Shown in pieces: positions 4,511 to 21,774 of a stretch of 64,000 nucleotides of DNA; within the stretch, counting starts at the first letter, position 1, and each line of letters begins with the position of its first letter. The DNA comes from Bacteroidales bacterium UBA3754 (GTDB lineage Bacteria; Bacteroidota; Bacteroidia; Bacteroidales; UBA1715). A model generated the notes under the pieces. The model saw only the letters and a list, made by a program, of their open reading frames with translations. It made no database searches and had not been told where the DNA came from. The DNA lies in assembly GCA_002371705.1 (NCBI GenBank), contig DFGI01000019.1, forward strand, positions 17,181-81,180. The letters are read 5' to 3'. The position numbers and the translations under genes were made by a program.

Positions 4511-6280
4511 TTAATTGTCAATCGTCCATTTTACCGATTGTTGATACTCGTTCCACATTTTGGAATACGTTCCGTTCATTTTTACGAGTTCCTGATGTTT
4601 GCCTTTTTCGATGATTTTTCCCTCTTTCAACACAAAAATTTCGTCAGCGTCAACCACGGTAGAAAGGCGATGCGCAATTTTTATGACCGTTTTACCCTTA
4701 GATATTTCGTCGAAAGCACGGAGAACTTTTTCTTCGTTTTCGGGGTCGGCAAAGGCAGTCGCTTCATCAAGGACTAAAATCGGCGTGTTTCGGAGCATCA
4801 CCCGCGCAATCGCAATACGCTGTTGTTCGCCACTACTCAGGTATGTACCCTTGCTACCAATAATTGTATTGGCACCATCAGGCAATTTCTCTATGATGTC
4901 GCCACATTGGGCACGTTCCAATGCTTCAAGAACTTCGTCGTCGGTTGCATCGGGTTTCGCCATACGGACATTCTCCAAAATACTCGTTTTCAACAGTTTA
5001 CTATCTTGAAACACAAACGAAACGATTTCGGAGAGTTTTTCCTGTGAAATATCTTTCACATCAACACCACCAATCAAAATCTTACCTTCGGTAGCGTCCC
5101 AAAACCGTGAAACGAGACTTGCCGAGGTTGTTTTTCCTCCACCCGAAGGTCCGACCAACGCCACGTGCGCCCCCGACGGAATTTTCAACGAAATGTCATC
5201 AACGGCATTTTTCACAGCACCATCATAACGAAACGTAACATTTTGAAATTCAACAGAATATTCGTTTGGTATTTGAGGTTTTTCAGTTTCATTCTGTTCT
5301 TGTACATTCAGCACCGAATCAATTCTTTCCAATGCTGTTCCAACAACCATATCGGCTTCCGACGAATACATCAGCTTATTAAGAGTGACCGAAATAATTG
5401 GAGTGAAAATAATGTAGAACATCAGATTTGTGAAGAACTCTGGATTCGCCACTGATGACGAATGATACAAAGCAACCGCAATCAGCGATGCGAACGCCGA
5501 ATTTATCACAACAGCGTAAGCAGTCATAGGCAGACGGAAACGCTTGGTATAACTAATGGTGAAGTGTTCATATTCGTCAATTGCCTGTTTGAGTTTCTTA
5601 AAAGAAAAAACTGATTGACCGAACGTTTTCACCACAGGAATTCCACGAACATATTCAACCGCTTCCTTCGTCATATTTTCAAGAGCGGCATTGTAGGCCT
5701 CCATGTCCCTTTTCAGCGTAGGACCAACCATAAAGATGTACATGATAAGAAAACCAAGCAAAACGGTCGCTATACAAAGCAGTCCTATTTTCCAATCAAA
5801 ATACAAAAGCAACGCTATCATGGCGACAGGCGTTGCCATAGCAACCGAACGGTCGGGAACAATATGAGCCATAAAATTTTCTATCGAGGCAGACGAGTCG
5901 GTGATGATTTTGCGGATTTTACCGCTTCCTTCACTTTCTATATGCCCCAGCGGCATTCGCAACACTTTTGCGACACATTTTTCGCGAATGTTGGCAACCG
6001 TACGGAATGCGCCAACGTGTGAACAAGCCAACGAACAGAAATAGACGCACATTGCGTTCACGGCAAATTTTACCGCCGTAAAGCCATAGTCTTCGAGATT
6101 CTCCGCACTCGAAAAATCAGGCATTACAGTCAGCACTTCATTCACAATTTTCCAGATATAGACAAACGGAACAAGAGCCAGACAGGCACTCAAAACTGCA
6201 AAAGCAATAGAGCCAGCGGTAAAAAACTTGAATCGCCCCGCATACCCCATCAATGTTAATAAATTAGGTTTCTTTTTCAT
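4511..6280 (-). CDS. ABC exporter half-transporter (fused permease and ATPase), probable heterodimer partner
   Basis: TM domain followed by Walker A GPSGGGKTT, a degenerate signature LSSGEQQR and Walker B LVLDEATAFAD. It is directly adjacent to the second half-transporter. Confidence 0.9.
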   Translation of the reverse strand: MKKKPNLLTLMGYAGRFKFFTAGSIAFAVLSACLALVPFVYIWKIVNEVLTVMPDFSSAENLEDYGFTAVKFAVNAMCVYFCSLACSHVGAFRTVANIREKCVAKVLRMPLGHIESEGSGKIRKIITDSSASIENFMAHIVPDRSVAMATPVAMIALLLYFDWKIGLLCIATVLLGFLIMYIFMVGPTLKRDMEAYNAALENMTKEAVEYVRGIPVVKTFGQSVFSFKKLKQAIDEYEHFTISYTKRFRLPMTAYAVVINSAFASLIAVALYHSSSVANPEFFTNLMFYIIFTPIISVTLNKLMYSSEADMVVGTALERIDSVLNVQEQNETEKPQIPNEYSVEFQNVTFRYDGAVKNAVDDISLKIPSGAHVALVGPSGGGKTTSASLVSRFWDATEGKILIGGVDVKDISQEKLSEIVSFVFQDSKLLKTSILENVRMAKPDATDDEVLEALERAQCGDIIEKLPDGANTIIGSKGTYLSSGEQQRIAIARVMLRNTPILVLDEATAFADPENEEKVLRAFDEISKGKTVIKIAHRLSTVVDADEIFVLKEGKIIEKGKHQELVKMNGTYSKMWNEYQQSVKWTIDN

Positions 6281-7245: not shown

Positions 7246-8373
7246 TTATTTCTCCAAAATCTTCTTCACAAACGGAATCAATTCCTTGCTCATTGCTTCC
7301 TGTTGTGCCGAACTTGGGTGCCAGTCGGCTCCCTCGCCAGCCACTGGCGTGAAATCGAAGCGGTACACCAATTGTTTTTTAGTGGTGGTGTAATCTTTTT
7401 GTATCTTGTCCAAAATCGGTTTCACGGCAGCCAACGCCTCTGGTCCCATCATACTGCCCGTAAGAAGCACAATGGTGGTTTTCGGGTAATGAGAGGTGAC
7501 AGAATTCATCAACTTTCGGAAATTCCGCTCGTATCTCTCCGCATTGAACGACGACATTTCCCACGTGTCGTTTGTTCCCAGGTTGATGAACAACACATCA
7601 GGAGTGAATTTTGAAAAATCCCACTGATGCGGGCTGTCGAGCCAGAGTTTTTCATAGTTGTCGGGCATACAGCCGTAATATAAAGCGGAATCTTTTTCTC
7701 CATAGTTACGGTAAATGCCAATGCCAGAGCGGGCAACTACCATGCATTCTGCATCAAATGCCTGTGCAGTGCGGTACGCATATCCATGACAGAAATTCGA
7801 CGTGGAGTCGTTGAACGGCGAGCGGTCGGTAACTTCGGTGCCGTAACCGCACGTGATGGAATTTCCTATGAATTCAAATTTGAGTTTCTTGTCGGCTGGA
7901 CGAGATAAATCGGGGAACGGGTCTTCGGCGCACCAAGAAAATCCGTAAAATTCAGGATTATGATAAATACCTTCCGACACCAACGTAATTTTTATAGTAC
8001 ATTTTTTATTAGAGGGAATGGGAATACGATAAAACGATGTATCTTTTGTACATATCTTAAATGGCTCATTACCATCAACTTCAATCCAATAATACGCTGT
8101 CACACGATTAAACTCAGCGTCCAACCAGTTCCACCCCTTTTCCCCCTTGACAGTGACAGAAATGGATGTTCCCGGGTAAAACAGATGTGCGGCAGTTGAA
8201 TCTATAAGTACACGACCGTCGTAACGGATATTTTTGTCGGTATGGGGAATCTTTCCACTACTGATAACACAACAGTCGATTTGTTGTCGGTCGCATTGCG
8301 AATTTTGTGCATTACAAACAAACGAATTAATCATATAAGCAAGAAAAATAAGAATTGTGAACTTTGTTTTCAT
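7246..8373 (-). CDS. SGNH/GDSL hydrolase, CE2-like carbohydrate esterase (beta-sandwich plus esterase domain), secreted
   Basis: Signal peptide MKTKFTILIFLAYMINSFVCNAQ. GDSL block FIGNSITCGYG, the GTND block and C-terminal DWHPS. ATG at 8373, 16 nt downstream of a TATCTTTG box. Paralog of 32228-33589. Confidence 0.75.
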   Translation of the reverse strand: MKTKFTILIFLAYMINSFVCNAQNSQCDRQQIDCCVISSGKIPHTDKNIRYDGRVLIDSTAAHLFYPGTSISVTVKGEKGWNWLDAEFNRVTAYYWIEVDGNEPFKICTKDTSFYRIPIPSNKKCTIKITLVSEGIYHNPEFYGFSWCAEDPFPDLSRPADKKLKFEFIGNSITCGYGTEVTDRSPFNDSTSNFCHGYAYRTAQAFDAECMVVARSGIGIYRNYGEKDSALYYGCMPDNYEKLWLDSPHQWDFSKFTPDVLFINLGTNDTWEMSSFNAERYERNFRKLMNSVTSHYPKTTIVLLTGSMMGPEALAAVKPILDKIQKDYTTTKKQLVYRFDFTPVAGEGADWHPSSAQQEAMSKELIPFVKKILEK

Positions 8374-9912: not shown

Positions 9913-12552
9913 CTATAATTTGATTCCCACTACAAGAATGTCGTCTATTTGTTGCTCAGTGCCTTTCCACGCATCCATTCGACGCGAGACGGTCATATAT
10001 TGCTCTGCCATATCCATATTTTGCATTTCAAGCACCATATCTTCGAAACGGCTGGTTGAGAACCGTGCTTTTGTTTCGCTGCCAAATTGGTCAATATAGC
10101 CGTCGCTGTATAAGTATAAGGTACAGCCTTCTTTTACGGGAATCGTCGTCTCTTCAAACACAACTTCCTGCGATTGTTTCAGCACATGCAAACCGCCAAT
10201 CGAAAACAGGGAAGAACCAATCGTTTGCACTTCTCCGTCCGAAACAATCAATAATTTTTGTCCGGCTCCCGCAAATGTGATTTCTGAACGTTTCTTGTCG
10301 TAGCGAATCAGCGATATTGCCATTCCGTCGTCCTGCGTGTCGTCGCCTTCGTTTTGACGCAAGGTTTTAATTACTTCATCGTCAATCATTTGTAGAATCC
10401 GCGCTGGGCTTTCTTCGTGCATTTCGTTCACAATTTGGTTGAGCAACGTATTTCCCACCATCGACATACAGGCGCCCGGAACACCGTGACCCGTGCAGTC
10501 AACCACAGCAAAGAACACATAATTTTTCGTTTTCGAAAGCCAATAGAAATCTCCGCTTACAATTTCCTTTGGCATATAATACACGAAATTTTGTGGAAAC
10601 AGCGACGACAATTCTTCCGCCGATGGCAAAACTGCTTTTTGAATGCGTTTTGCATACATCAGGCTATCAAGTATTTGTGAGTTTTTCTTTTCCAGTGCGT
10701 CATTTGCTGTCTTCACATCGTCGTAGGCGGCTTCGAGCTCCGATTGTTTCTGCGACAGCAGTGCGTAAGCGTTCTTTTTCTGCGTAAATAAACGATACAA
10801 AACGATAGAAAATGCAGCTATACCTAACAAAACCAAAACTAAAATAAGAATATAGATACGGAATTGGGATTGCTTCATCTCGTTTTCACGGATTTTCAAT
10901 TGTTGGTTTTCGTTGAGGTGCTCCAAAACCTTAATATCCGATTCGAATTCCATTTCGGCAATGCGCTCTTTATTTTTGTCGGCTTCGATTTCGTCTTTCA
11001 ACGACACGAATTTTTCATAATATTGTAGCGCCTTGTCTGGCTTGTTTTGCGATTTCATTAGTAGATACAATGATTGGGCTGCATCGCACGCCAATGTTTT
11101 TTCCTCGAATTTCGAGGCCGTTTCCATTGCGGATGCAAAATACTGTTCTGCCATAGGATTGTGCAATTCTTGCATCAATTTTCCTTGACTATAAGCAACA
11201 TACGCCTTGCCAAGCGCGTTTTTGCCATACAGCGCGTTTGCGGAATCGTACCATCGCATAGCCGACTGCGTTTCGCCAAAATCCTTATACAAATTTCCGT
11301 AGAAATTGCTGATGCGTGCGGCATTCAGCGAATCGCCAATGGAGCGATACACTTCGATGGATTTGCTGTAAAACAAACTTGCCTGCTTGAACAACGTTTG
11401 GTCTTTCGCAACCAAAGCCGTGTCGCGGCAAACCATACCTAATCGCTCATACGAGCTTGCAATTGCCTTCGGACTTGCAATTACAAGGTTTAGGTCGAGT
11501 GCGCGTTGATAATTTTCAATAGCTTTGTCGTAAATTTTCTGGTTTTTATATGTTCCGCCTATTGCGTTGTAAATCAATGCCTGCGCCTCTTTGTTGTCGG
11601 TTTTTGTACGAAGTTCAAGTGCTTTGCCGTAGTATTTCAGCGCTTCTCGGTAATTTCCCAAATCGCGGTGGACCGTGGCTATGTTGAACTGCGAGGCGGC
11701 AATGTCGTTTTTGTCGTCCAGTTTTGTCCGCAAATCAAGCGCGCGTTTGTAGTATTCCTGTGCTTTGTCATATACTTTGAGACGGAAGTAAAAATTTCCA
11801 ATGCTGTTGAGTGTGTAGGCTTCGCCAGCCTTGTCGCCAATTGATTCCTGAATGTTCACAGCGTTGGTCAAATACGACAGTGCATCGGAGTATTTGTGCA
11901 TTCCCACATACGCTGTGCTGATGTTGTTGCACAGGGAGGAAACGGATTTTTCGTCGTTGCACGACTGATATTCCATTTTTGCCAATTCGTATTGGCTGAG
12001 AGCGTCGTCATATTTCCCCATTTGCATATACACGTTGCCGATGTTTTTGTAGCACGTCGCCACAGCCTTGCGGTTCCCCAATGTTTGTTGTAATTTCAGC
12101 GATTGGTTGTGATAGACTATCGCCGAGTCGTAGCGGCTCAAATCCTTATAGATTGTGCCAATATTGTCGAGAATTGTGGCGGTTTGTTCGTTTGTTTCGC
12201 TGGTTTTCAGGGCTTTGCTCATATACACCAATGCGGAGTCGAACGAGCTGGTTTTGTGGTGCAGCATTCCGATTGTGAAATATGCGTCGGAGAGAATGGC
12301 TGGTTCCGCGGTGAAGGCAGCATAGTAATACGCCTTGTAAGCCGATATGAACGCTTTTTCGGGTGATTCGTTCAGATAAAGCATCGAAAGGTCCATCAAC
12401 GAATGGATTTTTTCGTTGCCCTTCGTCGATTCCACCACGCGCTTTAAACTATCAATGGATTTCTCGTTGTTTGCCGATGCCTCCAACGAAATACACGCAA
12501 CAAGCGCAATAACAAAGTATTTCAGTTTCATATAGTTGAGTTTAATTTTCAT
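9913..12552 (-). CDS. Receptor-type PP2C/SpoIIE phosphatase with periplasmic TPR array
   Basis: Domain order: signal peptide, about 12 TPR-like repeats, one TM helix (FRIYILILVLVLLGIAAFSIVLYRLF), a coiled coil, then a C-terminal SpoIIE/PP2C domain (GDFYW...DCTGHGVPGA...YSDGYIDQFG...DDILVVGI). An alternative ATG at 12531 (MKLKYF...) is possible. Confidence 0.85.
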   Translation of the reverse strand: MKIKLNYMKLKYFVIALVACISLEASANNEKSIDSLKRVVESTKGNEKIHSLMDLSMLYLNESPEKAFISAYKAYYYAAFTAEPAILSDAYFTIGMLHHKTSSFDSALVYMSKALKTSETNEQTATILDNIGTIYKDLSRYDSAIVYHNQSLKLQQTLGNRKAVATCYKNIGNVYMQMGKYDDALSQYELAKMEYQSCNDEKSVSSLCNNISTAYVGMHKYSDALSYLTNAVNIQESIGDKAGEAYTLNSIGNFYFRLKVYDKAQEYYKRALDLRTKLDDKNDIAASQFNIATVHRDLGNYREALKYYGKALELRTKTDNKEAQALIYNAIGGTYKNQKIYDKAIENYQRALDLNLVIASPKAIASSYERLGMVCRDTALVAKDQTLFKQASLFYSKSIEVYRSIGDSLNAARISNFYGNLYKDFGETQSAMRWYDSANALYGKNALGKAYVAYSQGKLMQELHNPMAEQYFASAMETASKFEEKTLACDAAQSLYLLMKSQNKPDKALQYYEKFVSLKDEIEADKNKERIAEMEFESDIKVLEHLNENQQLKIRENEMKQSQFRIYILILVLVLLGIAAFSIVLYRLFTQKKNAYALLSQKQSELEAAYDDVKTANDALEKKNSQILDSLMYAKRIQKAVLPSAEELSSLFPQNFVYYMPKEIVSGDFYWLSKTKNYVFFAVVDCTGHGVPGACMSMVGNTLLNQIVNEMHEESPARILQMIDDEVIKTLRQNEGDDTQDDGMAISLIRYDKKRSEITFAGAGQKLLIVSDGEVQTIGSSLFSIGGLHVLKQSQEVVFEETTIPVKEGCTLYLYSDGYIDQFGSETKARFSTSRFEDMVLEMQNMDMAEQYMTVSRRMDAWKGTEQQIDDILVVGIKL

Positions 12553-16950: not shown

Positions 16951-17394
16951 ATGGCAGAAAAAAAGACCGACGAATATTATATGGAGCAGGCGCTTGCGCA
17001 GGCGAAAATGGCGTACGAAAAGGACGAAGTACCCATTGGCTGTGTGATTGTGTGCGAGGGGCAAATCATAGCCCGTGCCCATAATCTTTCGGAAACGCTG
17101 AACGACCCAACCGCCCATGCCGAGATGCAGGCATTTACCATAGCCACGGATTTTCTTGGAGGAAAAAGTCTTCAAAAATGTACACTGTATGTGACGGTTG
17201 AGCCGTGCGTAATGTGTTGTGGTGCAGCATATTGGGAGCAATTAGGCAAAATCGTCTATGGCGCGTCCGACGTAAAACGACACGTTTCGGAACTGCACGA
17301 CAAAATCCTTCACCCCAAAACCGAAGTCGTTGGCGGCGTTCTCAAAGAACAATGCGAAGAACTGATGCAGAAGTTTTTTAAGGAAAAGCGGTAG
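16951..17394 (+). CDS. tadA: tRNA adenosine(34) deaminase
   Basis: MAEKKTDEYYMEQALAQAKMAYEKDEVPIGCVIV...; zinc-ligand motifs HAEM and PCVMCCGA. Confidence 0.9.
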   Translation: MAEKKTDEYYMEQALAQAKMAYEKDEVPIGCVIVCEGQIIARAHNLSETLNDPTAHAEMQAFTIATDFLGGKSLQKCTLYVTVEPCVMCCGAAYWEQLGKIVYGASDVKRHVSELHDKILHPKTEVVGGVLKEQCEELMQKFFKEKR

Positions 17395-17413
17395 TTTTAA
17401 AAGAAGAGGAATT

Positions 17414-17451
17414 TTACCTCACCAATTTAGTTAAATTGGAGTTGCCTATGA
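17414..17451. repeat. 38-bp direct repeat, copy 1 (orphan copy of the HTH gene 3' end)
   Basis: ttacctcaccaatttagttaaattggaGttgcctatga matches 18037-18074 at 37 of 38 positions. Read on the minus strand it would encode ...LIGNSNLTKLVR*, but a stop codon lies just upstream, so it is a remnant and not part of a gene. Confidence 0.9.
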
Positions 17452-17464
17452 GGTACTGCAAATA

Positions 17465-17749
17465 CTATGATTTAATTCTTTGAGTAAAGTCAGACCAATC
17501 TTCTACCTTAAATGCACGAATGTCGCGCCCCGATTTCCTAAACCAATCTATTTGTTTTAATGCGGTCATAGCATCGAACACAACGCCTAATCCATCTTCA
17601 TTGGAGTTTGTGAGATATACACTTCCTTGCGTCCAGAAAAACCCATATTTTTTCAAGACCTTTCCAATTTCAAAATAAGCATTATTATATTGTTCATTGA
17701 AGTTTTTCTTCAACTCGGCAATTTCCATATCAAAGGCAATAGCATACAT
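17465..17749 (-). CDS. vapD: VapD-family endoribonuclease (Cas2-like fold)
   Basis: 94 aa. [10 protein letters not shown]...[12 protein letters not shown]...[31 protein letters not shown] closely follows the pattern I recall for Haemophilus/Helicobacter VapD (MYAIAFD...QGS.Y...VRDIRAF....WSDFT). Confidence 0.85.
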
Positions 17750-17751
17750 AG

Positions 17752-17937
17752 TTACGCCAACTTAAAGTATTTCTGTTTGTTGAAATAAACTACTTTGTTC
17801 TCATTTGCTTCTGCATATATTACGATACCATTAAATGGATTGTCTTCAACGGTTTTTACAACACCGTCAATCCATTTGTCCATACCAGTAATGTTTGGTG
17901 AAATTTTTACCCGTGATCCAACTTTCAGTGTATTCAT
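17752..17937 (-). CDS. 61-aa protein of unknown function, upstream partner of vapD (candidate VapX-like antitoxin)
   Basis: Its stop lies 2 nt before the vapD ATG, and it has its own TATATTTG box 17 nt upstream. The sequence looks like a small beta-rich domain ([43 protein letters not shown]...). I recognise no family. Confidence 0.55.
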
Positions 17938-17954
17938 AATCGTTCTGTTTTCTG

Positions 17955-17962
17955 CAAATATA
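17955..17962 (-). promoter_or_regulatory. -7 box TATATTTG for the 61-aa ORF/vapD pair
   Basis: Reverse complement of caaatata, 17 nt upstream of the ATG at 17937. Confidence 0.55.
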
Positions 17963-18036
17963 TGCTAATTATTGAAATAAAAGCAACGGGGAATAGTAGA
18001 TTTCTTGTTTAGAAGTGACAGCGACAGGCGACTTGC

Positions 18037-18074
18037 TTACCTCACCAATTTAGTTAAATTGGAATTGCCTATGA
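18037..18074. repeat. 38-bp direct repeat, copy 2 (functional 3' end of the HTH gene)
   Basis: Matches 17414-17451 at 37 of 38 positions. Here it encodes the last 12 codons and the stop (IIGNSNLTKLVR*). Confidence 0.9.
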
Positions 18075-18357
18075 TGCGGAGAATTTCGGGGATTTTGTTC
18101 TCGTCAACTTCAAGTTGGAGTACAAATTTCTTTGCTTGTGGCTTTTCGTCGGCAGTTACAAACGGCGAGAAAAAGTTGTAATTCAATTCTTGCGAAACCG
18201 CAAATAATTCTTTCACATCCCACGAGTCATTTTTGAGTTTGCTTGTGAGGTTTTGCCTCGACATTCCTAACTTACGTGCCAATTCAGCCACAGTAACATT
18301 TTGTTGCACTGCAACTTTACGAATCCAATCTCCTATATGTAGTTCTTCTATATTCAT
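18037..18357 (-). CDS. Helix-turn-helix DNA-binding protein
   Basis: MNIEELHIGDWIRKVAVQQNVTVAELARKLGMSRQNLTSKLKNDSW...; the HTH core is TVAELARKLGMSRQNLTS. The ATG at 18357 is preferred over the track start. Confidence 0.7.
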   Translation of the reverse strand: MNIEELHIGDWIRKVAVQQNVTVAELARKLGMSRQNLTSKLKNDSWDVKELFAVSQELNYNFFSPFVTADEKPQAKKFVLQLEVDENKIPEILRIIGNSNLTKLVR

Positions 18358-18535
18358 ACCTGCAACTTGCAAAAGTTTTTATTGACAAAAACAAAAATAT
18401 TTTTACAAAAAGTTAAAGAAAATTTGCATCGGTGAAATTTATTTTTACTTTTGTAAAGTTAATTTTTACAAAAGTGCAAGAAAATATTGCACACTAAAAT
18501 TTATTCATTGTGTTTAATTAAAAAATGGAGGTATT

Positions 18536-19285
18536 ATGAAAACAGTTAAAATTCTAACTTTATGTCTTGCAGGTGTGTTTGGATTATATTCCTGCGGAAG
18601 TGACGACAAAGACGAGAAAAAAGAAGAAAAGAATAAGGTGTATTTGGTAAAGAGTCTTACCATCTCAGAAGGTGGTGACCATGATAAATATACTCTCGTT
18701 TATGAAAATGATAGAATCACAAATATCACACTTGTTGATTCTGACGGAGATACATACGCGGAAACGTTTTCATATCCTTCTGCAACATCCATTAATTGCA
18801 AAAGTGTAGACGGAGAAGGTGTAATTACAATGGATGCTACGGGGAACGTCATTTCAAAAGAAGAAGGTACAAATTTCGATGGCGATACGTATAAAGGTGT
18901 ATATTCTTTTATTGACGGGTATTTATCTAAAGAAAGTTGGGGTGAAAATAGTTATGACACTTATACTTGGTTAAATGGAAATCTTACATCTTTGAAAGAC
19001 ACATATGTATTTGAGGATGGAGAAGGCAAAGAAGAACGTGTAACTAAGATAGAATATTCCGATATTGAAAACAACACAAATATAGATTTCTATTTATGGT
19101 TATATAGTGGTGCAAATTATGCATATACTATTCAGTTTATGAAGAATGTTAGTAAAAACATACCAAGTTCAGTGAAATATGAGGAGGGATCACCTGCAAT
19201 CATATCAACCACATTAGATGAAAAAGGTCGTCCTTCAAAAATGATATATGACGGAGATACTTATACCTTTGAATATTACGATTAA
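18536..19285 (+). CDS. Lipoprotein of unknown function
   Basis: Lipobox GLYSC-GSDDKDEKK. The body is beta-rich and Y/D/G-rich, ending ...GRPSKMIYDGDTYTFEYYD. Family assignment is uncertain. Confidence 0.6.
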   Translation: MKTVKILTLCLAGVFGLYSCGSDDKDEKKEEKNKVYLVKSLTISEGGDHDKYTLVYENDRITNITLVDSDGDTYAETFSYPSATSINCKSVDGEGVITMDATGNVISKEEGTNFDGDTYKGVYSFIDGYLSKESWGENSYDTYTWLNGNLTSLKDTYVFEDGEGKEERVTKIEYSDIENNTNIDFYLWLYSGANYAYTIQFMKNVSKNIPSSVKYEEGSPAIISTTLDEKGRPSKMIYDGDTYTFEYYD

Positions 19286-19712: not shown

Positions 19713-19753
19713 AACAGTAAAATAGAAAATAAGTTCAATATCGCCATTTCCCC

Positions 19754-19768
19754 AACGGAGTGGCGATT
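19754..19768. repeat. Cassette-boundary repeat R1, copy a
   Basis: aacggagtggcgatt is identical to 20607-20621. With the following bases the match is 19 of 22. It lies immediately 3' of the PIN gene stop. Confidence 0.7.
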
Positions 19769-19769
19769 G

Positions 19770-20207
19770 TTATTTGTCTTTATTGAGCAACCTTAAAATA
19801 GCAATCATTTCGGCAGGAGAAACCACCTTTGGTGTTTGAGGAAAATGTTTTTTGTTGCCAGTAATTAAAAAAGAATCTTCCACCGACAAAGTCACTTCGT
19901 AAAAAACAATGTCTTTCTCGTCAATAAAATTTTCAGACGATGTTGTTCGTTCCGTCGAAAGGCCATACGTTTCAAAGAAATGCAACCACTCCATCACCAT
20001 TTCCGGTGAGAAGTTGAATTTCTTTCGAAATAACACCTCTTTGTATTCGGCGAGAATCTCTTTGTTTACTAATGGTTGTAAAATACCTTTTGTTAGGTAA
20101 TCCAAAACCAGAATTGTTGCGGCATCGGTTTTGTGGGAATATAGTGCAGACACGATTACATTTGTGTCTATCACTGCATATATTTTGTCATTTGTCTTCT
20201 CTTGCAA
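19770..20207 (-). CDS. PIN-domain toxin (VapC-like)
   Basis: IYAVIDTNVIVSAL... near the N-terminus carries the PIN acidic residue. About 145 aa. It overlaps the upstream DinJ-family antitoxin gene by 20 nt. The start is a TTG, so the exact start is uncertain. Confidence 0.8.
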   Translation of the reverse strand: MQEKTNDKIYAVIDTNVIVSALYSHKTDAATILVLDYLTKGILQPLVNKEILAEYKEVLFRKKFNFSPEMVMEWLHFFETYGLSTERTTSSENFIDEKDIVFYEVTLSVEDSFLITGNKKHFPQTPKVVSPAEMIAILRLLNKDK

Positions 20208-20577: not shown

Positions 20578-20597
20578 ATGTAAACTTTTTAATGAGG
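20578..20597. repeat. Cassette-boundary repeat R2, copy a
   Basis: atgtaaactttttaatgagg matches 21346-21365 at 20 of 20 positions. Confidence 0.9.
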
Positions 20598-20606
20598 TTT
20601 TTTCAA

Positions 20607-20621
20607 AACGGAGTGGCGATT
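20607..20621. repeat. Cassette-boundary repeat R1, copy b
   Basis: aacggagtggcgatt is identical to 19754-19768. It lies immediately 3' of the HigA-like gene stop and 9 bp after R2 copy a. Confidence 0.7.
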
Positions 20622-20625
20622 TTTA

Positions 20626-20955
20626 TTACCAGAGTGCTATTTTGCCAAATTTTCCAAAGTCAATGGTGGCGGTTTTGGCTCCAAGTGCCTTAAAAGCTTT
20701 TTCAATAGTGGCAAACGTCATATTTTTCCCATTTTCAATTCTCGACACTTGAGATTTTCGTATTCCCATACGTTCGCCAAGTTCTTCTTGCGTTAGATTC
20801 TCGCGTTTCCGCGCTGCTTTAATTGCCTCTCCAATGCGATATGCGTGCAGTGCATCCTCTACGTTTTTCTCTAATTCGTCACGTCGTGGCGAACCTGCTT
20901 TGCCGTAAAATTCATCAAGTAAATCTTCAAACGGTGTCAAATTCATCTGTGCCAT
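20626..20955 (-). CDS. XRE-family HTH antitoxin (HigA-like)
   Basis: ...RENLTQEELGERMGIRKSQVSRIENGKNMTFATIEKAFKALG is a classic Cro/C1 HTH. It sits downstream of a RelE/HigB-type toxin gene. Confidence 0.85.
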   Translation of the reverse strand: MAQMNLTPFEDLLDEFYGKAGSPRRDELEKNVEDALHAYRIGEAIKAARKRENLTQEELGERMGIRKSQVSRIENGKNMTFATIEKAFKALGAKTATIDFGKFGKIALW

Positions 20956-21345: not shown

Positions 21346-21365
21346 ATGTAAACTTTTTAATGAGG
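21346..21365. repeat. Cassette-boundary repeat R2, copy b
   Basis: atgtaaactttttaatgagg matches 20578-20597 at 20 of 20 positions. Confidence 0.9.
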
Positions 21366-21380
21366 ATTTGATGAATGATG

Positions 21381-21655
21381 AAATATGTCTGAGCCTTTCA
21401 GGCTCATTATAATGGAGGCGCAGGAGCCTATTCTACGGCTATGCCGCAGGGAATTTCTGTCCGAGCCATTCGGGCTCTTTCCTCCATCGAATGCTTCTCC
21501 GATTAATAATTTCATGAACAGCCTGAAAGGCTGCGACAAATATACCCCAATGGCATCGCCTTGGGCGCCCCAGGGCAATTCAATAGCAGAATTATGCTCA
21601 TTGCTCCAATTATCTTCCGAGAGAATATGCAGCCAGAATGGCTGCGACAGATATA
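21381..21655. repeat. Cluster of four REP/BIME-like hairpin units (two per orientation) plus a GC palindrome
   Basis: Unit consensus is AGCCnGAAnGGCTnnGACAnAnAT. U1 at 21381-21404 (minus strand): agcctgaaaggctcagacatattt. U2 at 21452-21476 (minus strand): agcccgaatggctcggacagaaatt. U3 at 21520-21544 (plus strand): agcctgaaaggctgcgacaaatata. U4 at 21631-21655 (plus strand): agccagaatggctgcgacagatata. There is also a 10-bp palindrome tgggcgccca at 21563-21572. The only ORFs here are two mutually antisense ones. Confidence 0.75.
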
Positions 21656-21774
21656 GCTTGAATATTGCGACCATCATAGTATGCGATTCTTTGCGACAAA
21701 ATTACAGATTTCTTACGGAAAAGCGGTAGCCATTAAAAATAAATCTGTATTTTCGTGAACAAAATTTTAAGGAT

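Follow-up and report, generated by a model that had tools for sequence, protein, structure and literature searches.

The VapY proteins are SH3-like antitoxins, one of which, from a Muribaculum pair, neutralises its VapD toxin experimentally; the VapD mutant used in that work was D7N (PMC11980593). With respect to how such modules may be acquired, homology-anchored displacement that leaves orphan gene ends behind has been proposed for type VI secretion system (T6SS) and Rhs loci (PMC5361080), and with one-sided homology in Escherichia coli, 56 of 60 integrants were re-circularised molecules that had entered via a single crossover, with duplications of 109-950 bp (PMC3240628). Here we analyse a 64,000-nucleotide stretch of Bacteroidales bacterium UBA3754 (contig DFGI01000019.1, positions 17,181 to 81,180; hereafter the window), in which a predicted two-gene VapYD cassette lies between a helix-turn-helix (HTH) regulator gene and a convergent tadA-like deaminase gene, and is bracketed by a 38-nt direct repeat that equals the 3' end of the HTH gene. 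By linking the structure of this locus to that of related loci, we conclude that the repeat is probably the scar of a single recombination event which placed the cassette between the two convergent genes.

The repeat, TTACCTCACCAATTTAGTTAAATTGGAGTTGCCTATGA, occupies positions 17414-17451 and was found by repeat search to recur, with one A/G change, at 18037-18074; the copies match at 37 of 38 positions and are separated by 623 nt from start to start. A search allowing up to three mismatches returned these two copies in total in the window, while 38-mer matches appeared in 0 of 100 dinucleotide shuffles and none are expected by chance. Given that the pair is also carried by independent assemblies from the Joint Genome Institute (JGI) and the European Nucleotide Archive (ENA), an assembly artefact can be ruled out; window positions 8037 to 28357 are matched at 100% identity within ENA contig ERZ12302853 NODE_6 (locus L009). 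A preliminary description of the window had placed the repeat at these positions with 37 matches, had regarded the left-hand copy as an orphan with an upstream in-frame stop, and had assigned a 61-aa open reading frame (ORF), vapD and their promoter to the intervening 585 bp (17452-18036). These statements hold, the in-frame stop being the TAG of vapD itself. The right-hand copy is the 3' end of the HTH gene as described, although strictly it comprises 11 full codons, 2 nt of a twelfth and the stop rather than the last 12 codons and the stop. The sole mismatch between the copies is synonymous (AAT/AAC, Asn); it belongs to a set of five changes by which the last 85 nt of the window's HTH allele stand out.

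Approximately 30 related loci, obtained by exact-match look-up of the HTH and VapD proteins and by a single scan each of genomes and metagenomes, were sorted into five classes; the relatives are Bacteroidales metagenome-assembled genomes (MAGs) from ruminant guts. Sites of the first class (L019, L020, and L025) are empty: the HTH stop is followed by a 19-nt spacer, ATTTCCTCTTCTTTTAAAA, and the tadA stop, with a single 38-mer that is identical to the orphan at 38 of 38 positions. Compared with these empty sites, the window contains an extra 623 nt, corresponding to the cassette and one copy of the 38-mer, and the alignment of window-type sequence to L020 restarts exactly at the first base of the orphan and proceeds into tadA at 93.9% identity. 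The spacer reads AATTCCTCTTCTTTTAAAA in the window versus ATTTCCTCTTCTTTTAAAA in L019 and L020. Sites of the second class (L001-L009, L016, L029, and L031, representing about eight separate contigs) are filled and display the structure of the window. All filled HTH/tadA sites carry ...TATTTGCAGTACC followed by the 38-mer, with an invariant orphan, and their right junction, AAATCATAGTATTTGCAGTACC followed by TCATAGG..., is identical throughout. Because the filled sites share this one identical junction, a single event, and not repeated insertion, is indicated, and the sequences point to a single origin of the filled sites. The HTH-end copy, on the other hand, varies among strains by 0, 1, or 3 differences from the orphan, tracking the allele mosaic of the HTH gene, and the two copies are identical at 38 of 38 positions in L016, L031, and L007.

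Loci of the third class carry the HTH gene with the same intergenic region, vapY and vapD elsewhere, being followed by a YjbR gene in L014, L015, L017, and L018, and lying beside lepA in L023. Each of these loci has one 38-mer, and the HTH stop directly precedes the cassette intergenic region; the full 99-nt intergenic region abuts the HTH stop in L014, L015, L017, L018, L026, and L027, and does so partly in L023. Since the same base follows the same HTH stop in class 3 loci with no duplication, the left edge of the cassette in the window is ordinary HTH homology and not an insertion junction. Locus L023 (positions 6000-6270; MAG RGIG6246) is a decayed copy that abuts lepA and in which the final 138 nt of the HTH gene, an intergenic region of reduced length, the vapY 3' end, and approximately 17 vapD codons remain; the same MAG also carries an intact HTH gene beside tadA with an empty site (L020). 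Members of the fourth class (L010-L013) encode an identical HTH protein, lack vapYD, and have a different insert between HTH and tadA, which is composed of a gene for a membrane protein of 194/210 aa and the promoter region of a type-2 HTH module. Direct repeats of 29-30 nt, made up of the tadA 3' end and 9 nt of spacer, flank this insert (e.g. L010:10337-10366 and 11136-11165), and these loci look like two stacked HTH modules from which the second HTH gene has been deleted. In the fifth class (L021, L022, L028, and L030), the HTH gene has yet other neighbours. HTH homologues with and without the insert, the comparison suggested in the preliminary description, were therefore available in the form of empty sites, filled sites, and other contexts that lack a second copy of the repeat.

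On the minus strand, the order of elements in the window is HTH gene, 99-nt intergenic region, 61-aa gene, vapD, 13 nt, orphan 38-mer, 19-nt spacer, and convergent tadA stop, and the 13 nt at 17452..17464 are the only novel junction. In filled sites, the vapD stop is followed at this junction by ATCATAGTATTTGCAGTACC and then by the 38-mer. The TATTT within it still matches vapD-downstream sequence at other loci, and homology to the L014 type stops approximately 11-15 nt past the vapD stop. For the 8-nt GCAGTACC (17452-17459), no source was found among VapD relatives, the nearest other clusters being at most 76% identical and found in unrelated contexts, and no clear microhomology was seen where GCAGTACC meets TCATAGG. 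The locus thus combines one edge that is explained by homology with a donor-type locus (contiguous from HTH through the 5' part of vapD in the L014 type) and one novel junction with little or no homology (GCAGTACC followed by TCATAGG).

The proposal presented here builds on the existence of empty sites, the one junction common to all filled sites, the unbroken run from HTH gene to cassette elsewhere, the recombinase genes that were looked for and not found, and the young age of the cassette; from these we infer in which direction the event ran and how exactly the join was made. The ancestral site would have consisted of the HTH stop, the 19-nt spacer, and the tadA stop, and the incoming DNA would have come from a locus where the same HTH gene directly precedes the cassette (promoter, vapY, and vapD). 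On the left side, ordinary homologous pairing would have occurred inside the HTH gene, while on the right side a single illegitimate join would have connected position -38 of an HTH 3' end with DNA lying approximately 15-20 nt past the vapD stop. This could have happened by either of two routes: (i) linear, homology-anchored illegitimate integration that would leave the final 38 nt of the resident gene behind as the orphan, or (ii) re-circularisation of a fragment composed of the 38-mer and the cassette, followed by a single crossover within the 38 nt that would duplicate them. Both routes yield the same product, and the sequence does not tell them apart. Once in place, the repeat would let the cassette be lost precisely, and the HTH 3' region on the left together with the orphan and spacer on the right would provide homology arms through which ordinary recombination could move the cassette into empty-site strains.

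Identity patterns across the filled loci are consistent with such movement. The 585-bp cassette is 98.6-100% identical among them, whereas identity is 93.6-97.4% for the neighbouring tadA and 86-99% over the first third of HTH, and left breakpoints fall within HTH. Between the window and L014, a tract of approximately 1 kb extending from the promoter through HTH and vapY into the 5' part of vapD is 95-100% identical per 100-nt segment, with flanks that are only 63-87% identical, and empty and filled sites coexist at approximately 97% flank identity. Given that the cassette is near-identical while its flanks have diverged, it is much younger than the flanks and has spread recently through diverged backgrounds via ordinary homologous recombination. 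The preliminary description had called the rearrangement recent, and the far greater conservation of the cassette than of its flanks bears this out. Today's empty sites may be ones that the cassette never reached, or ones from which recombination between the repeats removed it.

The HTH gene is itself a mosaic, in which two types of 5' part are combined with several 3' variants, as seen in window 18037-18500 and its counterparts in L019-L021, L026, and L028-L031. The two forms diverge sharply in the first ~120 nt, the divergent promoter, and the partner gene, which encodes a 249-aa lipoprotein in one form versus a membrane protein of 160-210 aa in the other, and their 3' two-thirds are nearly identical, a pattern indicative of frequent recombination within the gene. 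Both 5' types occur together with the cassette (L029 and L031). Use of HTH alleles for telling the resident from the incoming copy was abandoned because, with a mosaic gene, the test is not decisive. The HTH protein of the window has weak Pfam matches (HTH_26/HTH_3) and is a member of a small, lineage-restricted regulator family, with only 14 protein clusters at ≥84% identity among 5.8 billion proteins; the gene occurs beside tadA with or without the cassette, and also in other contexts. Within the divergent promoter shared by the HTH and lipoprotein genes (window 18393-18491) we observed a 32-nt imperfect inverted repeat and a 30-nt direct repeat spaced 63 nt (ATTTTTACAAAA...GAAAAT.TTGCA), which may be candidate operator sites for the HTH protein.

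The VapD protein matches Pfam Cas2 (PF09827) at 33.4 bits, above the cut-off, and is matched in the PDB by VapD of Helicobacter pylori (3UI3, E 2.9e-29) and Haemophilus influenzae (6ZN8/6ZI0, E 1e-23). It is 58% identical to a Muribaculaceae VapD, and both Asp7 (MYAIAFD) and the QGSVY motif can be read from its sequence, so that the catalytic Asp and Ser of a VapD-family toxin are present. For the upstream 61-aa protein, no Pfam or PDB sequence match was obtained, and an AlphaFold2 (AF2) model was beta-rich with Tudor/SH3-like top hits at low confidence (predicted local distance difference test, pLDDT, 60.6). As confidence in the fold model was too low, the identity of this protein was taken from direct sequence comparison. 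A Bacteroidetes-type -7 box, TATATTTG, can be read on the minus strand at 17955-17962, assigned by the Bacteroidetes -7 consensus, and vapY and vapD are the only genes within the 585-bp unit. With VapY of Muribaculum sp. An289 the 61-aa protein shares 41% identity (E 2e-16); this comparison is less certain in its C-terminal third, the reference having been translated from the DNA in Table S2 of PMC11980593 after repair of optical character recognition (OCR) errors. Because it matches a tested VapY and lies immediately upstream of vapD, where an SH3-like antitoxin is expected, the cassette is predicted to be a VapYD type II toxin-antitoxin operon, and the 61-aa ORF can be annotated as VapY. In the loci examined, vapY always accompanies vapD. 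More distant vapYD pairs stand alone between housekeeping genes unrelated to those of this locus (OmpH/purD, prs/AAA_14, and NUDIX/Zip), where neither the HTH gene nor a flanking repeat was seen.

While a single join accounts for the locus, a second HTH gene could have supplied the orphan. The preliminary description had raised the deletion of a second HTH paralog down to its last 38 bp, and this comes close to one variant of the explanation we favour. In its fuller form, tandem lipoprotein-HTH1-vapYD and partner2-HTH2-tadA modules would have been assembled, and a later deletion would have left the last 38 nt of HTH2. Stacked modules do exist here, as L010-L013 have lipoprotein-HTH1 followed by a type-2 partner gene and promoter with HTH2 missing, L023 retains a 138-nt HTH 3' remnant, and one MAG holds two paralogous HTH loci (L020 and L023). 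Nevertheless, no intermediate with a longer HTH fragment, and no partner gene, was seen between vapD and the orphan in the approximately eight filled contigs and several short partial contigs, and two rare events are required where one suffices; we therefore regard this two-step history as unlikely, though worth keeping in mind. True target-site duplication, in which a 38-nt staggered break at the HTH end captured a free 585-bp fragment (through a transposase-like activity or end joining) and fill-in duplicated the 38 nt, formally describes an insert with a perfect duplication, and the 38/38 identity of the copies in L016, L031, and L007 agrees with it. However, the left end of the insert coincides to the base with the nucleotide following the HTH stop at duplication-free loci, and a fragment captured at random would be very unlikely to start so precisely there. 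Pfam lists for L009 (identical to window 8037-28357) show no integrase or transposase gene in the 10 kb on either side of the cassette, no inverted-repeat pair was found at the cassette ends (17452/18036), and the repeat-flanked form occurs only at the HTH/tadA junction, so neither the transposase or terminal inverted repeats of a transposable element nor the same element at several sites, each with a duplicated target, were encountered. A duplication of 38 nt is also outside the range of sizes known for transposases. Taken together, this makes target-site duplication barely credible. Insertion or recombination at the HTH end, as put forward in the preliminary description, is retained to the extent that a discrete two-gene unit and 623 extra nucleotides distinguish the window from empty sites; target duplication by a mobile cassette is not, the left edge being no junction. 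Nor does the repeat define a minimal mobile module, as was also suggested, given the missing recombinase and transposase genes within 10 kb, the one junction, and the vapYD pairs that occur elsewhere with no flanking repeat.

The 38-mer might instead be an attachment site for an integrase-, Xer- or integron-like recombinase encoded elsewhere, making vapYD an integrase-less cassette and the two copies attL and attR. As in attL/attR islands, the repeats are identical to the 3' end of the target gene and empty sites hold one copy; the repeat also contains an 8+8 palindrome, CCAATTTA-AC-TAAATTGG (8-2-8), empty and filled sites coexist in strains that are ~97% identical, the cassette is far more conserved than its flanks, and other cassettes of the island likewise have short bracketing repeats. 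Several observations nonetheless make an attachment site very improbable. Only one end of the unit is novel relative to other locations, the HTH stop and cassette being contiguous, with no second copy, in L014, L015, L017, L018, L023, L026, and L027; one junction at one locus was found; and no site-specific recombinase gene is present within or beside the element (none within 10 kb). In place of the ~57-141-nt imperfect inverted repeat of an integron attC, and the IntI with attI that would accompany it, there is only the 8-2-8 palindrome inside a coding-derived 38-mer, and no integrase was found. Folding of the repeat region is no better than that of shuffled sequence for either copy (z -0.7 to +0.1). 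Matches to the 38-mer in the genome, metagenome, and viral scans were confined to HTH ends and the orphan, with none in viral contigs, which also disposes of the possibility, considered in the preliminary description, that it belongs to a longer dispersed repeat. In addition, the different, non-overlapping stretch repeated in L010-L013 (the tadA end) argues against one specific att site, and fits illegitimate joins near conserved gene ends in which survivors kept both genes intact. A broader version, in which the HTH/tadA junction and the surrounding island form a cassette-acquisition site served by a trans-acting recombinase using gene-end repeats as sites (38 nt for vapYD, 29-30 nt for L010-L013, and 20 nt for a HigBA pair described below), is equally hard to credit. 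If true, it would represent an integron-like or pdif-module-like toxin-antitoxin system in Bacteroidales, from which the 623-bp vapYD unit would excise and re-integrate as a circle.

It is important to note that several points weigh against a single illegitimate join. Two or three cassettes within a 4-kb island are bracketed by repeats of 20-38 nt, which could hint at a systematic process, and a recombinase could have acted in trans from elsewhere in the genome. The cassette could also have been placed at tadA first, with the HTH-cassette block moving elsewhere later with no orphan; the left edge could then have begun as a genuine insertion junction. A donor locus with ...TATTTGCAGTACC after the vapD stop, leading into other sequence, was not found. 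With regard to the second route, a single crossover within only 38 nt would be inefficient; 38 nt is near the lower limit for RecA-dependent exchange. With regard to the first, recipient DNA is usually lost, and not duplicated, in classical homology-facilitated illegitimate recombination (PMC3240628).

Table 1. Features of the HTH/tadA junction in the window.
Feature	Position	Strand	Description
tadA-like deaminase gene	16951..17394	+	Convergent with HTH; right-hand flank of hot spot; Pfam dCMP_cyt_deam_1, MafB19-deam
Spacer	17395..17413		19 nt from orphan to tadA stop; matches HTH-tadA spacer of empty sites
Orphan 38-mer	17414..17451	-	Last 38 nt of HTH gene (2 nt + 11 codons + TAA); non-coding remnant or duplicate
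Junction	17452..17464	-	13 nt between vapD stop and orphan; on gene strand TATTT, GCAGTACC, then 38-mer
vapD	17465..17749	-	VapD-family (Cas2-like) toxin, predicted; 94 aa, TAG stop
vapY	17752..17937	-	61-aa antitoxin gene, predicted; 2 nt upstream of vapD
Intergenic region with cassette promoter	17938..18036	-	99 nt; directly after HTH stop
Functional 38-mer copy	18037..18074	-	3' end of intact HTH gene
HTH gene	18037..18357	-	106 aa from ATG; alternative TTG start at 18372; C-terminus ...IIGNSNLTKLVR, then stop
Lipoprotein gene	18536..19285	+	249 aa, divergent; travels with HTH gene as partner-HTH module

Coordinates of the junction features are summarized in Table 1; the tadA-like gene is called as a 147-aa gene in related contigs. 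In its frame, the orphan reads QRIKS, stop, YLQYLIGNSNLTKLVR, stop, and it is in frame with vapD, which is probably a coincidence. Read-through of the vapD TAG stop would append YLQYLIGNSNLTKLVR (window 17452-17467). A role for the orphan as a structured RNA or terminator was considered and rejected (hairpin of -12.3 kcal/mol, z -0.7, and no call by a terminator scan). Phage or plasmid origin of the cassette was likewise set aside, as phages and viral contigs gave no match and one Citrobacter plasmid gave a weak, partial match at the level of vapD only.

Other repeats are found in the neighbouring island. A 28-nt repeat around a PIN/RelB pair (19747-19774 and 20600-20627), 86% identical and overlapping the stop codons of the PIN toxin and HigA genes, was evaluated as a second target duplication and rejected: it is a terminator-like hairpin, AATCGCCACTCCGTT...GGCGAT, present downstream of several unrelated genes at related loci. 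As the same hairpin also occurs after a Y1_Tnp gene in L016 and inside the L010 insert, the 28-nt repeat represents a common 3' element rather than a duplicated target. The HigB(Gp49)/HigA(HTH_3) pair is bracketed by an exact 20-nt direct repeat, ATGTAAACTTTTTAATGAGG (plus strand; 20578-20597 and 21346-21365), which occurs in the window-type contig alone; the relatives offered no clean empty site for it. Further along, positions 21383-21655, inside 'orf106' (21357..21677, minus strand), contain four hairpin repeats of ~24 nt (ATATxTGTCxGAGCCxTTCxGGCT), two per orientation. A Y1_Tnp (PF01797) gene comes after this block in L008 and L016; it is missing from the window, and L010 and L011 retain no more than its first ~16 codons. 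The four-hairpin block with Y1_Tnp suggests an arrangement resembling repetitive extragenic palindromes and their associated tyrosine transposase (REP/RAYT), and 'orf106' may not be a gene.

For annotation, these results call for some caution, since a long direct repeat that equals a gene 3' end, and for which relatives have empty sites, resembles an att site or a target duplication; the repeat in the window is most likely neither, and the orphan 38-mer should not be called a gene. As in integrase-mediated islands at gene 3' ends, the repeat is the 3' end of the flanking gene, that gene remains intact, and empty sites hold one copy. Unlike such islands, the 585-bp unit has no integrase detected in or near it, its left edge is no junction, it is found at one locus with one junction, and a neighbouring insert duplicates a different segment. 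Compared with other vapYD pairs, the pair in the window differs in being attached to an HTH-lipoprotein module and in having a flanking repeat, and its toxin-antitoxin function is predicted; it otherwise resembles the VapYD and VapXD type II systems in having a 94-aa VapD with Asp7 and QGSVY directly downstream of a VapY homologue of ~60 aa (PMC11980593).

In terms of mechanism, the locus most closely parallels homology-facilitated illegitimate recombination and the 'C-terminal displacement' described for Rhs, contact-dependent inhibition (CDI), and T6SS effector loci, where a conserved upstream anchor is combined with an illegitimate join at the other end (PMC5361080, PMC3240628). In displacement, a new module is placed before a leftover 3' piece of the resident gene; here the HTH gene would be the anchor and the orphan 38-mer the leftover. 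Whereas Rhs, CDI, and T6SS loci displace toxin tips and leave orphan immunity genes, a complete regulator is kept here, a separate toxin-antitoxin operon is added, and the leftover is only 38 nt long and non-coding. A further difference is that classical homology-facilitated events usually delete recipient DNA, and the process in Bacteroidales is proposed here from sequence comparison. Similarity to single-crossover (Campbell-type) integration lies in the direct duplication on both sides of the insert, which corresponds exactly to the homologous segment carried by the circle; in contrast to the E. coli integrants, the shared segment is 38 nt, and the predicted circle junction would join GTACC to TCATAGG. 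The mechanism is an ordinary one, well documented at the HTH/tadA locus, and the VapYD family is already described. As such, the locus offers a clean and well-sampled natural example of a toxin-antitoxin module that was probably added at a chromosomal hot spot by one illegitimate join and then spread among diverged strains by homologous recombination.

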